Origin: an uncultured delta proteobacterium
GTDB lineage: Bacteria; Desulfobacterota; Binatia; UBA9968
NCBI GenBank assembly: GCA_963745835.1
Contig: CAVUZH010000018.1
Coordinates: forward strand, 256,001 to 320,000
Direction: 5' to 3'
Length of the DNA: 64,000 nt
Shown here: piece by piece, positions 2,157 through 20,778 of the stretch
Layout: each line of letters begins with the position of its first letter
Numbering within the stretch: the stretch's first letter is position 1
Notes under the pieces: generated by a model
The model's database searches: none
The model's input: only the letters and a program-made list of their open reading frames with translations
Told to the model about the DNA's origin: nothing
Position numbers and translations under genes: made by a program

Positions 2157-2537
2157 ATGAAGCCCAAATTCATCAAACACGATCCGCCTCGGCGTTATTC
2201 CAAGGCGTCGGTTTATGGCGATTTCATTTTTTTGGCGGGCGAAGATTCCAAAGACCCAAAAACTCAAAAGGTGAGGGGAACAACGGCCGCCGAACAAGCG
2301 GAGTACCTGTTCCAGAATATGAAAGCAACGCTGGAGAGTTTAGGAAGTGGACTTGAGGATGTCATCAAGACTACGATCTATCTCACCGACGCTCGCCACG
2401 CCGATGGTTACCGGGAAGGGCGTAAGAAATATCTGCCGCATGCGCCGCCGAGCACTCTTATCATGGGTGTTCAATTGGCCGAACCGGAGATGCTGATCGA
2501 AATCGAAGCGGTAGCCGTAATTTCTGAAAAAAAGTAA
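2157..2537 (+). CDS. RidA/YjgF family protein
   Basis: YSKA..GDFIFLAGE, DVIKTTIYL, LIEIEAVAV. Confidence 0.9.
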   Translation: MKPKFIKHDPPRRYSKASVYGDFIFLAGEDSKDPKTQKVRGTTAAEQAEYLFQNMKATLESLGSGLEDVIKTTIYLTDARHADGYREGRKKYLPHAPPSTLIMGVQLAEPEMLIEIEAVAVISEKK

Positions 2538-2607
2538 CCGCCATGTCAGAGATCGTTGCTAGATTGTGTGGTTGCACTCTTTCTCTATTGTCAGGACGCT
2601 GCTTGGG

Positions 2608-3189
2608 TCAGCTTTTTACTTTCAGAGTTGGAGCGAGCCCGGTCGTCGTATCGCCTAAAACCTCTCCATGAGCGATACCCAGCGTTTTAATCCAGCGCTG
2701 CTGTCCCAAGGTAAGCGCGACAAAAAAGCCGAGCTCAACCAACTCTTCGGTGGTAAAGTGCTGATGCAACTTCTGCCAGAGTGCGTTGTCAGCGATTCCT
2801 GAGTTCCAGATAATCGCGCTGGTATAGGTCAGCGCCACCTTTTCCCGTTCGGAAAACTTTTCCGAATCGGCAAAATTCAGCAGCTCATCAATCTTGTCCT
2901 CGGTCAGACCCTTCCGTCCAGCCTGGACGGACCGCTGGACTCCTCAGTATTCACAGTCGATGGACTTTGAAACATAAACACGGCAGAGCTCCTTGAGAGC
3001 ATGGTCGCAAACACCCTGCCGGTAGGTCAGTTCCCATGCTTGCGAGAACGCCCGAATGACACTTGGGTTATTGGCCCGAATCGCTTGACTCTCAGGCCGG
3101 GGCGTACCTTCTTTGCGCGCCAGTTCGAGGTAACCCAGAATTTCCGGGTCCGTGATAGACGCCGGATCGGCATAGGGAATGTGCGGCAT
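2608..3189 (-). CDS. AhpD/carboxymuconolactone decarboxylase-family selenoprotein (CxxU)
   Basis: ORFs 2944-3189 and 2608-2838 are in frame and joined through one TGA (2944-2946): ...LKELCRVYVSKSIDCEY-U-GVQRSVQAGRKGLTEDKIDELLNFADSEKFSEREKVALTY...; hairpin just downstream. Confidence 0.85.
2914..2930 (-). promoter_or_regulatory. Putative bacterial SECIS hairpin
   Basis: CCGTCCA-GGC-TGGACGG, a perfect 7-bp stem with a G-containing loop, 13 nt 3' of the in-frame UGA. Confidence 0.7.
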
Positions 3190-3226
3190 TGGCAGTACCT
3201 CCTTCGGTCAACCCTACTCGGCTGCA

Positions 3227-4288
3227 TCAATTGAAGCCATAGAACTTCTTTGGATTCGTCTCAAGGATTTTGCTGACCACCCCAGGTGCAATTCGTTTAT
3301 CATTGCGCAGCAGATGAATGGCGTTGAGCTCGGTCGAGGGATCATGGTGACCGTAGTCGGTGCCGATCATCAGACAATCCTCGCCGGCATGGCTCAATAC
3401 GTAAGGCAGATCATCAGTGTTTTCGCATGCCACCCACAGGTTGTTTGCCGCGAGCGGGTCGGCTGGAAACGGTCTCCCCTGACGCCGGAAGCGATCGGCT
3501 AGATCGTTGAGAACATAGGGCACCCATTGGGCGCTGACCTCGACAAAGCCCCAGCGAACCTTCGGAAATTTTTTCGGAATTTCTTTCTCAAGCAAGGTAT
3601 GGAAAGCGCCGACGACAGTCAATTTGAATTTAGTAAAGCTAGTATCCTCGGCGAAGAAGTCATGATGAATAAAACTGCCGTTGGCCGAATGAATGCAGAC
3701 GGGAAGATCGAGTTCGGCCGCCATTTCCCAGAGCGGGTAGAAATACGGAGCGCCGAGCGCCCGCTCGCATTCCAGGCCGCGCATGAAGATGCCGCATGCG
3801 CCGTTTTTCTTGGACCATTCGAGTTCCTGTCTTAATGCGGCGGGCGTTTTTTCCAGCAAACGCAGGGGCGGCTTGGCCACCCAGCGCAATCGCCCTTGAC
3901 CCTGCCGCCAAAGCTCGCCCATCCAGCGATTATAAGACTTGCACAGAGCACGCTCGCGTTCGGCATCCTGCAGAACCGGCCGGAGAAACAGCGTCGGATA
4001 AAGCACCTGCGTTTCGATGCCGAGGTCATCCATATGCGCGAGCCGTGCCTGGACGCTGAGCATTTCACGCGATTCCTTTGACGTATCCGTGCCCACATTG
4101 CGGTCTTTGCCGAATGCGCGGTTCTCGATCACCCAGAATTCGGGGACGGCGATTCCTTCATTACTGAGAAGTTTCTCGCCGAAGGTTTGAGTCATGAGTT
4201 GCGGAGTGTAACGTCTTTCATCATTCTCCAGGTAGCTCCATGTCTGCACCGTCTCGATCACATGTGCATCTGCGTCAATCGCTCCCAT
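3227..4288 (-). CDS. Amidohydrolase_2 family protein
   Basis: IDADAHVIE, QVLYPT, PVCIH, IGTDYGHHD; AGGAGG RBS. Confidence 0.9.
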   Translation of the reverse strand: MGAIDADAHVIETVQTWSYLENDERRYTPQLMTQTFGEKLLSNEGIAVPEFWVIENRAFGKDRNVGTDTSKESREMLSVQARLAHMDDLGIETQVLYPTLFLRPVLQDAERERALCKSYNRWMGELWRQGQGRLRWVAKPPLRLLEKTPAALRQELEWSKKNGACGIFMRGLECERALGAPYFYPLWEMAAELDLPVCIHSANGSFIHHDFFAEDTSFTKFKLTVVGAFHTLLEKEIPKKFPKVRWGFVEVSAQWVPYVLNDLADRFRRQGRPFPADPLAANNLWVACENTDDLPYVLSHAGEDCLMIGTDYGHHDPSTELNAIHLLRNDKRIAPGVVSKILETNPKKFYGFN

Positions 4289-4646
4289 CAGCTTCCTCCT
4301 TGAACTAAAGTACTTCCGCTCCGAGTTGCTCGTGATGAGGACCACCAGTTCGTATCCACCACCGGCTTCTCACGGAACCATGCAACAATACTGGAGGGCA
4401 TTGGCATGTCATAACATGATCGGTTTGAAGCGGGCAATTCAATAGAGCAGCTCGATTCTACAGCTTGGATCTCGCGGGGAGCCAGGCATTTTTGTAGCTC
4501 GACCTATCCACCAACGGATTCTATCGTACCGTCAGACTTGACGTTGCTTGTGAATTCTCGGCGGTGCCGCTATTGAGTAAAAAACCGGTTCAATGACAGC
4601 TTCTAAGCCTTGCGAATGAACCTTGACCTCGATAGGAGGAACTTTG

Positions 4647-4956
4647 ATGCTGCATATTGCTTTTCTATTTACAGTAGATCACCGATGCCGCGAAGATGGA
4701 AGAATACCGCAGCCGCGTTCTGGCAACCGTAAAGCATTATGGCGGGCGCTACTTGGCAGTGGGCGGCAGATGCGAGGTGGTGGAAGGCACCTGGCGGCCG
4801 GTATTGCCGGTGCTCATCGAATTTCTAAACCTCGAACCGGCCAAGGCCTGGTACGGTTCCGATCAATACAAAGAGCTGAAAGCGCTGCGACTCTCGGCGA
4901 CCAAGGGCGACGTGGTGTTCATAGAAAGCGGGCCCAACGAGTTCGACGGGCCTTGA
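4647..4956 (+). pseudogene. DUF1330 family protein with a degraded 5' end
   Basis: ITDAAKMEEYR..YGGRYLAVGG..EGTW..LIEF..AKAWYGSDQY; the N-terminus (AAYCF) is out of frame and a TAG lies just before ITD. Confidence 0.65.
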
Positions 4957-5140
4957 TGTGCCGAATTAGGTGGAGCTAGCCTGTGCCGCATGCTAACTTC
5001 TATGATCGCAATGCAGACTCGCGACATTCAAGCTTAGCTTAACAGTATGCAAGAAATCCCAGAATCTCTGAGGTGGGTTCTTTGAGCGGGAGATGGATCG
5101 CGGAAAAGTTTTATAATTTATCTCCCAGGGAAGGAGACGG

Positions 5141-5362
5141 ATGAAAGTTGTTCTGCTTGCTTTGGCGATGTTGGTGGCTGCCTGCGCCAGCCCGCCGCCA
5201 CCGGCTCAAACGAGGGACAAGACCACTACAACGGCAAACCCAAGCAGCTTGAGTCGTGATACCACGGATTGCGAGCGTCAGGCTGCGCTGGCCGGCCCGG
5301 GTGAGAGAGCCAAAGCTTTTGAGAGCTGCATGAAAGCGAAAAACCGGACGCCGCAGCGTTAA
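5141..5362 (+). CDS. Small lipoprotein with a Cys pair
   Basis: Lipobox LVAAC, two further Cys (DCE, SCM), AAGGAG RBS. Confidence 0.75.
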   Translation: MKVVLLALAMLVAACASPPPPAQTRDKTTTTANPSSLSRDTTDCERQAALAGPGERAKAFESCMKAKNRTPQR

Positions 5363-5409
5363 AAGCGGATAAAGATCCAACTGCGCGAGATTACGCCGCC
5401 GAAGCCGGA

Positions 5410-7812
5410 CTAGCGCAACACCTCTCGTTGTCTGAGATCCGCAATCTGCCGGCTGGACATGCCCAGTAATTCACCGAATACCGACTCGTTATCGTCGCCG
5501 GCGAAGCGCGCTTGCTCTTCAGCCGTAAATTTCGCTGCGCTCGACCGAACTGATGGCCCGGCGCGCGTCACCCAACCGGTGGACTGATGAAACACCTCCC
5601 GCGCAGAGCCGCGCTCGCGCAGGTGCGGATCGCGATAGAGATCTTCGGCGGTTTGCACTACCCCGGCGGCTATGCCGTTGCGCTGCAAAATCATCATGAC
5701 CTGATGCGGCGTGTGCCGGGCCGTCCACGAGTCGACCAAAGGATCGAGCTCTGAACGATTTGCAACCCGGGATGAAAGATCCCTGAACCGAGCATCTGCA
5801 AACCACTCGCGATGGCCGACGACATCGCAGAAGTGCGCCCATTCTTCTTCCGTCTGCACCGAAATAACACACCAGCGGTCGTCTCCCTTGCATTTATAGC
5901 AGCCGTGCGGCGCAGAGAACGCGCTGAAATTGCCGCGTGGTTGAGGCTCCCGCCCGGTTAGCAACCATTCCAGATGTGCCGGAGCAATGAGCGAGGCAGC
6001 CGTCTCGGCCTGGGAGAGGTCGATGTACTGGCCTTTGCCGGTACGCGCGCGATAGTGCAGAGCCGCTAGAATCGCCAGCGCGCCATAGGAGGGCGCGATG
6101 TAATCGGGAAAGGCCGTCTGACAAGCGGCACCCGGCCGCTCGCTTTCGGGATCACGCCAGAGATAAGCCATGCCGGAATAAGCCATGAGAATTGGTCCGA
6201 AACTGACATAGTCGCGCCGCGGCCCGGTCTGACCAAAAGCCTGAAGGCTGGCCATAATGATGTCGCTGCGAACTTTGCGCATGCGCGGATAGTCCAGTGA
6301 CCAACTCGCCATCACCCGGGCGCTGAAATTTTCCGCGACAACGTCCGATTGAGCGATGAGGCGCTTGGCGAGATCCACTCCCTCGCTGTGCTTCATGTTG
6401 ATGGCGATCCGTTTGCGGCCGCGGTTACTTTCGAGATCGGAGGCAATTTGAAATTGTTGGCCGCGCTGCGGGCTGCGGATGGCCCGACCGGCTTCAATGG
6501 AAATAACCTCTGCGCCATGTTCAGCCAACAGGCAGCCCAGGGCCGGTCCGACAACGCCGGTTGGAAAACTGATGACTCTGATGCCCGCAAAAGCTCGGCT
6601 ACTGCTCTCCGGTGATTTCAATGATTCCAGCGCCGGTGAGGGTCGCGACCAATCGCTCGTTATCATTGATTGATGTTCGCCAACGAGCGGCGCGCCCCGG
6701 CCGATATGCCAGGGGCTTTCAGAAAATTTATAAGGATCCCCAGGAAAACGGTGCCGGCCTAAATGAGCGTGATTGATTTCCACAACATAGTCGCGATGCC
6801 GGGTCTGTTCATCATCGAGAAAGGCACTGGGCGAGTTAATTGGGGCGGCGGCCAACCGACGCCCTTGAAATTCATCGAAGAAACCTTTCACGTAATAATT
6901 CAAAGTGCGGGCCTCGATGAGACGATCGAGCAGCGGCCGTAGTGGCAATCGGTTCTGCACGTTCTCGAATTTGGGATCGATCAACTCCGGTGGATTTCCG
7001 AGCCATTCAACCAGACGTCGCCAGTGATCCGGTTGGTTGCAGAAGAGGCGAACAAAACCGTCTTTGCACTGGTAGGTCTCAGCAACCGTCGTTGCCTGGC
7101 TGTGTCCGGTGCGCTGCAGTATTTCACCCGTGACACTGTAGCGCGTGATGATGCGTAGAAAGGGATCGGCAACCAACACGTCCTGAAGTGAGATGTCCAG
7201 ATGATCGCCACGCCCAGAGACGCGCCGGTTGAACAGGGCTACCAAGGTGCCAAACGCCGCATGCACGGATCCCAGACGATAGGCGATATCGCACGGACCG
7301 CTGAGCGGGGCGCGCTCGGGATGGCCGCATAGATTCATCAAACCGCCCATCGCAAATGCGACGATACTCGGCGTCTTGAAATCGCGATAAGGGCCCGTGC
7401 TGCCAAAGCCACTGATGGAAGTCATGACCAGTGCTGGATTGATGGCTTGCAGATCTTCGTATCCGAGACCGAGCCGTTGGCAAAATGCCACTGGACGATC
7501 TTCGATGAACACGTCTGCATGGCCAACGAGATGGCGCAGCCTTGCACGATCATTCTCCGACTCTAGATCCAGGACAATTCCCTGCTTGTTTGTGTGATAG
7601 GCGGCAAAGGAGATACTTCCTTCCGGGTTCGGACTGTCCTTGAACGGCCCCTCGCCTCGCATGATTTCGCCACCGGGTGGTTCTATGAGAATTACCTCGG
7701 CGCCAAGATTTGCCAGAAGCAGACCGCAGTATCCTCCCATTCGACTGGTAAAATCCAAGACACGTAGACCGGCTAACGCACCCGATTTCAATGGATTCGA
7801 TTCGACAGGCAT
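5410..7812 (-). CDS. Two-domain CaiB/BaiF class III CoA-transferase
   Basis: Two repeats: LAGLRVLDF...LGAEVILIEPP and FAGIRVISF...HGAEVISIE; DVVAENFS. Confidence 0.92.
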   Translation of the reverse strand: MPVESNPLKSGALAGLRVLDFTSRMGGYCGLLLANLGAEVILIEPPGGEIMRGEGPFKDSPNPEGSISFAAYHTNKQGIVLDLESENDRARLRHLVGHADVFIEDRPVAFCQRLGLGYEDLQAINPALVMTSISGFGSTGPYRDFKTPSIVAFAMGGLMNLCGHPERAPLSGPCDIAYRLGSVHAAFGTLVALFNRRVSGRGDHLDISLQDVLVADPFLRIITRYSVTGEILQRTGHSQATTVAETYQCKDGFVRLFCNQPDHWRRLVEWLGNPPELIDPKFENVQNRLPLRPLLDRLIEARTLNYYVKGFFDEFQGRRLAAAPINSPSAFLDDEQTRHRDYVVEINHAHLGRHRFPGDPYKFSESPWHIGRGAPLVGEHQSMITSDWSRPSPALESLKSPESSSRAFAGIRVISFPTGVVGPALGCLLAEHGAEVISIEAGRAIRSPQRGQQFQIASDLESNRGRKRIAINMKHSEGVDLAKRLIAQSDVVAENFSARVMASWSLDYPRMRKVRSDIIMASLQAFGQTGPRRDYVSFGPILMAYSGMAYLWRDPESERPGAACQTAFPDYIAPSYGALAILAALHYRARTGKGQYIDLSQAETAASLIAPAHLEWLLTGREPQPRGNFSAFSAPHGCYKCKGDDRWCVISVQTEEEWAHFCDVVGHREWFADARFRDLSSRVANRSELDPLVDSWTARHTPHQVMMILQRNGIAAGVVQTAEDLYRDPHLRERGSAREVFHQSTGWVTRAGPSVRSSAAKFTAEEQARFAGDDNESVFGELLGMSSRQIADLRQREVLR

Positions 7813-20376: not shown

Positions 20377-20778
20377 ATGGCAAAACTCCGGCATCTTGCG
20401 ATCTTGACCCATCAACCGGAAAAACTCGCGGACTTCTATAAGAAAGTTTTTGAGCTAAAAGAAATGTACCGCACCAAAAACGGCTCGGTGCATCTCTCAG
20501 ACGGTGAAGTGAACCTGGCGATTTTGAACGCGACTGATCCGAAAGAGCCGGGTCACGCCGCCGGCATGTATCATTTTGGCTTTCATGTCGATGATGCCGA
20601 AGTCGTTGCGCAACGTATTCAAGAGCTTTACCCGGAGGGCGCTCCCAAAGCGAGGCCAAAGGGAACCAGCTACGCGGAAACTCGCGGTTCGGATCCCGAT
20701 GGCAACCTGTTCGATATCTCCACTTGGGGATGGGGTGAAAAACTGTTGCCCAAAGAAAAAGGCGGACCCGGCGCTTGA
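20377..20778 (+). CDS. VOC/glyoxalase family protein
   Basis: LRHLAI, FYKKVF, YHFGFHVDD, DPDGNLFDIS. Confidence 0.9.
   Translation: MAKLRHLAILTHQPEKLADFYKKVFELKEMYRTKNGSVHLSDGEVNLAILNATDPKEPGHAAGMYHFGFHVDDAEVVAQRIQELYPEGAPKARPKGTSYAETRGSDPDGNLFDISTWGWGEKLLPKEKGGPGA

Follow-up and report, generated by a model that had tools for sequence, protein, structure and literature searches.

Two neighboring genes on the minus strand make up the locus under study within the window, by which we mean the whole 64-kb stretch of DNA that was analyzed. The upstream gene, at 3227..4288, is an Amidohydro_2 (PF04909) gene of 353 codons, recognized by Pfam with an E value of 1.7e-15 and closed by a TGA stop at 3229-3227. 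The downstream gene, at 2608..3189, encodes an AhpD-like (CMD-fold) protein; in its read-through translation, it comprises 193 codons followed by a TGA stop at 2608-2610. Its ATG start (3189-3187) lies 37 nt beyond the end of the amidohydrolase gene, the very spacing given in the initial annotation of this DNA, and is preceded at a distance of 8 nt by a Shine-Dalgarno-like AAGGAGG read from the sequence (3198..3204, minus strand). Under translation table 11, the AhpD-like gene appears as two open reading frames, one running from 3189 to 2944 (81 amino acids) and the other continuing in the same frame to 2608, with one TGA between them. This TGA (2944..2946, minus strand) is codon 82, occupies the second-Cys place of the motif C79-E-Y-U82, where it is read here as selenocysteine (Sec), and is the sole interruption of the frame before the stop at 2610-2608. 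The initial annotation had joined the two short frames across the UGA into a single 193-residue protein of the AhpD fold, and both the read-through translation and Pfam agree with it: the CMD domain (PF02627) matches residues 44-123 of the read-through protein with an E value of 2.7e-7 and spans the TGA. Orthologs cover both sides of the TGA at 69 to 99% identity.

A search of the 64-kb window for pairs of open reading frames joined by a TGA, and running open for 60 codons or more to either side of it, returned 29 candidates, among which the AhpD-like gene alone has a trusted CxxU/UxxC-type context. Positions 20776 and 31224 were also looked at briefly in this search.

How is the in-frame TGA read? 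The source genome (7.28 Mb in 25 contigs, 97.1% complete, with 9.3% contamination) encodes all the genes that the initial annotation had proposed to look for, namely, selA, selB, selC, and selD. The tRNA-Sec scores 74.2 bits, and its anticodon is given as tca by ARAGORN; selA (608.6 bits), selB (394.3 bits), and selD (383.4 bits) all exceed their curated cutoffs and lie side by side on one contig (C22). The selD gene of this genome has one in-frame TGA of its own.

The conservation of the TGA was examined at two scales. With the read-through protein as the query, we searched 41 genomes, consisting of the source genome and 40 relatives. The 10 matches with at least 75% identity (G000, G001, G003, G004, G005, G016, G019, G021, G022, and G023) have exactly one TGA each, and the 5 matches at 51 to 56% identity (G008, G009, G010, G020, and G033) have none. 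A scan of contigs with one genome per species then yielded 580 related stretches, the best 80 of which correspond to 79 distinct loci at 69 to 98% identity; several of these lie on the same contigs as the loci of the relatives, so that the two samples overlap. Within these best 80 stretches, TGA stands at codon 82 in all 79 species-level loci, whose labels name roughly a dozen groups at the level of class or phylum, including Binatia, Rokubacteria, Deltaproteobacteria, Burkholderiales, Chloroflexota/Ktedonobacterales, Actinomycetota, Armatimonadota, and Acidobacteriota, among others. Read directly, codon 82 is TGA in loci L021-L029 and TGC in two Cys homologs (L031 and L032). Among the 120 protein matches listed, the residue at the Sec column is Cys in 107, Trp in 10, and something else in 3, two of which (P0006 and P0057) show a CxxC motif and one of which (P0030) is deleted there. 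Alignment of the homologs at the UGA column, as suggested at the outset, gives UGA in the best-matching loci and Cys in more distant homologs, and the placement of the UGA at the second Cys of a CxxC motif holds, since the homologs show CEYC, CSYC, or CQYC at this place.

Independent contigs provide another view of the same codon. A DNA contig from another study (X5 record 23, covering 2757-3210) and RNA-library contigs from three studies (X15 record 4, X16 record 10, and X17 records 17 and 18) all cover the TGA, and two of them, X15 record 4 and X16 record 10, have 0 differences from the window. Among the difference rows listed for the DNA and RNA-library contigs, none falls at 2944-2946, and the two records with 0 differences do not depend on this listing. 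The agreement among independent contigs is solid evidence against an assembly error at the TGA. The RNA-library contigs also hint that the AhpD-like gene may be expressed; such contigs are no proof of transcription, and the stretches that they leave uncovered are no evidence either way.

These observations bear on whether the TGA is a real stop, leaving a pseudogene or two small genes, or a product of misassembly. The two open reading frames seen under table 11 are what a real stop would give, and decay does occur in the family, as one relative (G003) has a copy with an apparent frameshift in the N-terminal region. However, the homologs do not end at this position: in 79/79 loci the TGA is present and both halves of the protein are kept at 69 to 98% identity. 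The TGA is also spanned by a Pfam domain, is retained in the independent contigs of both DNA and RNA-library origin, and is followed by a covarying hairpin (described below). We consider a real stop or an assembly error barely credible. Readthrough of the UGA as Trp, Cys, or Gly, by a suppressor or an altered code, has in its favor the Trp found at the Sec column in ten database homologs. The entries with Trp stem from metagenome contigs of short length and are consistent with gene calls made under code 4, homologs have at this place a Cys that belongs to a redox motif, and the full Sec machinery and a SECIS element are present, all of which make readthrough as another amino acid extremely unlikely. 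Furthermore, TGA is the stop codon of both the AhpD-like gene and the amidohydrolase gene, indicating that TGA has not been reassigned genome-wide.

A SECIS hairpin lies at 2913..2931 on the minus strand. A perfect 7-bp hairpin 13 nt past the UGA had been noted in the initial annotation, and folding reproduces it: counted in the mRNA with the U of the UGA as 1, CCGUCCA at 17-23 pairs with UGGACGG at 27-33 (2930-2924 with 2920-2914) around a GGC loop (2923-2921), and U16 and A34 form an eighth pair in the sequence of the window, closing the hairpin. The hairpin lies within codons 87-93 (S-V-Q-A-G-R-K) and its stem within codons 87-92 (S-V-Q-A-G-R). As a single sequence, it shows no excess of stability over shuffled sequence (z scores of -0.23 to -1.81), and an Rfam scan of 2700-3100 with E values up to 10 returned chance miRNA and rox1 matches and no SECIS family. 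Since folding of the single sequence was not significant, we relied on comparative data.

The comparative alignment of the hairpin consists of 77 sequences, namely, the window and the 76 distinct sequences that the 79 loci supply once one two-copy locus and two duplicate sequences are left out. Standard pairing is found in 98.3% of 532 cells (7 pairs, 77 aligned sequences). Changes on both sides occur at 3 of the 7 stem pairs, in 22 such cells, including compensatory replacements of C-G by G-C in 9 sequences, of C-G by U-A in 8, and of U-A by C-G in 3. None of 500 shuffles reached the covariation score of the hairpin, a control that overstates significance because the sequences are related; the compensatory pairs and a slide control, in which pairing falls to 15 to 43% of cells once the partners are moved by 1 to 3 columns, are independent of this kinship caveat. 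The first base of the loop (G24) is G in 77/77 sequences. In sequences labeled Ktedonobacterales, the stem codons read S-V-R-S-G-S with pairing retained, and no hairpin was found in the Cys homologs L031 and L032. The comparative data on the TGA and the hairpin are far beyond chance. They also make the hairpin a neat illustration of how an RNA signal constrains the sequence of a protein, since amino acids are swapped across codons 87-92 yet the base pairs are kept.

The fold of the protein was modeled with AlphaFold from a 24-sequence alignment, giving a mean pLDDT of 88.8 and a pTM of 0.85. The best PDB matches found by Foldseek are the AhpD-core structures 2prr, 2oyo, 6k40, and 6e8l, with TM scores of 0.70 to 0.73, and further fold and sequence matches include Pseudomonas aeruginosa PA0269/AhpD and the debrominase Bmp8. 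Family models are less specific about the protein: it scores 26.1 bits against TIGR01926, below the curated cutoff of 81.8 bits, and its best NCBIfam match, NF053654 (GroundWater_YciW; E value of 3.1e-16, residues 25-166), reaches 59.7 bits against a cutoff of 310 bits, so that its placement in a subfamily is by fold and motif only. A PcaC-type (4-carboxymuconolactone decarboxylase) model is absent from its three NCBIfam matches with E values up to 0.01. Its nearest JGI homologs are named "alkylhydroperoxidase family enzyme," which we take to be the name of COG2128.

The residues around the Sec position can be compared with the catalytic site of Mycobacterium tuberculosis AhpD, which has the signature Glu-X11-Cys-X2-Cys-X3-His, with the second Cys of CxxC as the attacking residue and the His four positions after it. 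The AhpD-like protein has E67 12 residues before C79 (E67-X11-C79), followed by C79-x-x-U82; if the second Cys attacks as it does in M. tuberculosis AhpD, Sec82 would be at the expected catalytic place. Four positions past Sec, an Arg (Arg86) is invariant in the alignment, and the N-terminal segment GTPRPESQA is strongly conserved or invariant. The invariant Arg86 in place of the His, together with GTPRPESQA, suggests that the chemistry or substrate may differ from that of textbook AhpD.

The gene is thus very probably a genuine selenoprotein gene, in which UGA82 would be read as Sec and the product would be an oxidoreductase of the AhpD/CMD fold. The proposal of the initial annotation that this UGA encodes Sec is in this respect well supported by the machinery, the TGA/Cys pairing, the covarying hairpin, and the TGA in independent contigs, and from these lines of sequence evidence we infer Sec insertion at UGA82. 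In the mechanism that we propose, SelB carrying Sec-tRNA(Sec) would recode UGA82 at the ribosome, recruited by the 7-bp-stem hairpin with its G-first triloop that starts 13 nt downstream in the coding sequence, and the selA-selB-selD cluster and tRNA-Sec of the genome itself would provide the machinery. The predicted product is a 193-residue, all-helical thiol-selenol oxidoreductase of the AhpD/CMD fold with Cys79/Sec82 as its redox pair, which may cycle between the selenol/thiol and selenenyl-sulfide forms and be recycled by a thiol donor. The substrate reduced would presumably be a hydroperoxide, a disulfide, or a similar oxidized or electrophilic compound.

Another question is whether the gene works together with its neighbor. 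The initial annotation had suggested that the two genes may form a Sec-dependent catabolic module rather than a generic peroxide defense. The Sec protein and the amidohydrolase would then both serve a single catabolic pathway, for instance, with a redox step coupled to hydrolysis or decarboxylation. The two genes lie on the same strand, and the gap between them is bridged by RNA-library contigs (X15 record 5, 3073-3918; X17 record 18, 2940-3277). A scan of 2400-4700 for promoters and terminators found no more than expected from shuffled sequence and detected no terminator either between the two genes or after the AhpD-like gene. Because the gap is only 37 nt, has no terminator-like site, and is bridged by contigs, the two genes are probably cotranscribed in this genus. 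The window also encodes other genes of catabolic type (Amidohydro_3, an NMT1-like binding protein, RidA, and a CoA-transferase III), and enzymes of the CMD fold are not confined to reducing peroxides but can carry out other redox chemistry, as illustrated by Bmp8, which is among the matches by both fold and sequence. In addition, a distant Amidohydro_2 paralog (25 to 31% identity) is found 1.2 to 3.4 kb away in 15 of the 79 species-level loci.

The distribution of the pair argues against such a module. Only in G000, G001, G004, and G005 do the two orthologs lie next to each other; these genomes belong to one genus, and their copies are 95 to 99% identical to the window and so carry no information on whether linkage is selected. 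Among the species-level loci, the adjacent ortholog is found in 2 of 79 (L045 and L046, the G001 and G005 contigs), a paralog in varying orientation in 15, and neither within the flank examined in 62. The pair is adjacent in 0 of the 12 loci of other relatives, each with several kilobases of flank, where neither tblastn (E values up to 0.01) in the loci nor Pfam, applied to 56 neighboring open reading frames, found an amidohydrolase relative or a PF04909 domain. Orthologs of the amidohydrolase with 84 to 90% identity exist in six relatives (G002, G007, G017, G023, G010, and G019). Two of these, G019 and G023, hold the two orthologs on different contigs (the G019 contig stops inside the amidohydrolase gene), and two others of the same genus as the source, G002 and G007 (96% complete), have the amidohydrolase at 90% identity and no AhpD ortholog found with this query. 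No AhpD- or RidA-like gene was found beside the amidohydrolase ortholog in the four loci inspected (G002, G007, G017, and G023). The source genome has 128 PF04909 matches, which makes a chance neighbor of the Amidohydro_2 family unremarkable.

In other genomes, the Sec gene has varied neighbors, among them glyoxalase/VOC, MurJ, Ogt/Ada, NMT1, and PrpD-like genes. Clustering of the neighbors across the 79 loci placed a glyoxalase/VOC gene directly upstream in 13 and a MurJ gene before that in 11, and a Fer2-cyclase gene downstream on the opposite strand in 16; Ogt/Ada-type methyltransferases were found in 4 loci, NMT1-type binding proteins in 9, and PrpD-like genes in 7. No universal partner gene emerged from this clustering, and the sole recurrent context (MurJ, glyoxalase/VOC, and Fer2-cyclase; 11 to 16 loci) is lineage specific. 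Checked in this way for conservation, the gene pair is not kept across genera: it is limited to four nearly identical genomes, and its members lie apart elsewhere. The pairing with the amidohydrolase is a recent local accident and not a conserved module; nothing points to a function that the two enzymes have in common, and a catabolic pathway shared by them is improbable. The varied neighbors across genomes instead suggest an enzyme of stress response or detoxification that stands alone, outside any one fixed pathway.

Two bolder readings may be put beside this one, which even taken together we hold to be unlikely. In the first, the Sec enzyme would have been recruited in one Binatia-type subclade to a place beside an Amidohydro_2 gene and cotranscribed with it, so as to provide a selenol redox step, such as a reductive loss of a substituent of the kind catalyzed by Bmp8, while a compound is being degraded. 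In the second and milder one, the ortholog group would form a distinct subfamily, marked by GTPRPESQA...C-E-Y-U-G-V-Q-R-S and nearly always containing Sec. The ortholog group with this signature is found in many phyla at 69 to 84% identity, and no NCBIfam model captures it.

The value of the result lies mainly in annotation. Gene callers split the AhpD-like Sec gene or miscall it, as in the ten entries with Trp under code 4, and the presence of a TGA ortholog in all 79 species-level genomes examined implies that the selenoproteomes of lineages from soil and groundwater are undercounted. No new mechanism or long-standing question is opened by this gene.

Among known systems, the Cys-type AhpD-core structures 2prr, 2oyo, and 6k40 (Deinococcus radiodurans), 2ijc/2o4d/7xw1 (P. 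aeruginosa PA0269/AhpD), and 6e8l (Streptococcus pneumoniae AhpD) share the fold and the position of the CxxC motif with the protein of the window. They match it with TM scores of 0.60 to 0.73 at 16 to 23% identity, have Cys where it has Sec, and differ from it in its invariant Arg86 and N-terminal GTPRPESQA. Bmp8 (PDB 6ohi and 6ohj), also of the CMD fold, is matched both by sequence (E value of 0.0011) and by fold, though weakly, at 17 to 19% identity, and the window has no halogenation context. The SECIS of the Escherichia coli fdhF type is an in-frame hairpin just 3' of the UGA with G as the first base of its apical loop. The hairpin of the window is likewise in the reading frame just 3' of the UGA with a loop that begins with G, but it is much shorter (7 bp with a 3-nt loop), and no bulged U is seen in it.

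The closest counterparts are the AhpD-like selenoproteins of marine metagenomes, a type reported in 2005 and 2008 (PMC1088965 and PMC2398784). The AhpD-like CxxU protein (COG2128) was reported from the Sargasso Sea data as a novel family of selenoproteins with 27 sequences (PMC1088965), and in the GOS data, AhpD-like 1, with 299 selenoproteins and 902 Cys homologs, was among the most abundant families and AhpD-like 2 (pfam02627) counted 70 (PMC2398784). The AhpD-like families are still listed in a 2026 review, which assigns TIGR01926 to the marine family (PMC13188914), and a 2026 database includes a page on an AhpD-like family (PMC13326102). Our search of the literature on Binatia and selenocysteine returned no report. 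The protein of the window shares with the marine proteins the AhpD/CMD fold, a CxxU motif with Sec in second place, many Cys homologs, and, downstream, a small hairpin whose apical loop contains a G. It differs in that its ortholog group comes from metagenome-assembled genomes of soil, rhizosphere, and groundwater type, and in that it falls under the cutoff when compared with TIGR01926, the model of the marine family. NF053654, the "YciW-related (seleno)protein" family, is of the YciW/AhpD type and includes Sec members; the protein of the window is a relative of this family and not a member. Hence, the gene is an ordinary member of the known AhpD-like CxxU kind of selenoproteins, and its recognition here is a correct reannotation.

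The genome that contains the window carries a second AhpD/CMD-like gene with an in-frame TGA, located on the minus strand of contig C13 at about 274914 to 275327 (locus L124). This gene has a C-P-F-U motif and is only ~23% identical to the AhpD-Sec gene of the window, indicating that the genome holds at least two predicted AhpD-like selenoprotein genes. One TGA is also present in many CMD paralogues of the relatives' genomes. In the same genome, selA, selB, and selD form one cluster on contig C22 (positions 65479 to 70161), and selD itself contains a single in-frame TGA, suggesting that it is probably a selenoprotein gene as well.

Two full copies of the AhpD-Sec gene, both with the CEYU motif, lie ~2.8 kb apart on one contig at locus L083, with their TGA codons at 2342 and 5123. 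The orthologue of the same-genus genome G003 (contig C360, about 5081 to 5643; L030/L038) is split over two frames near residues 48 to 58, owing either to a frameshift in this copy or to a misassembly; the TGA is kept despite this split.

Amidohydro_2 (PF04909), the family of the gene 37 nt upstream of the AhpD-Sec gene, is very large in the window's genome, with 128 matches in its 7.28 Mb, 127 of which exceed the Pfam cut-off. Many copies are also found in relatives from the same order. Elsewhere in the window, the minus strand at 5410 to 7812 encodes an 800-residue protein with two stretches matching CoA-transferase family III (PF02515; E value, 5.4e-179), apparently two such domains fused in tandem. 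In another genus, represented by G019, a GrdB/PrdB-like gene (Pfam GRDB; E value, 4.2e-6) lies directly upstream of the AhpD-Sec gene, at about 137 to 1015 of locus L033 (contig C103). An in-frame TGA divides this GrdB/PrdB-like gene; the codon sits in a UxxC motif, F-U-P-A-C, and the gene is probably a second selenoprotein gene adjoining the AhpD-like one.
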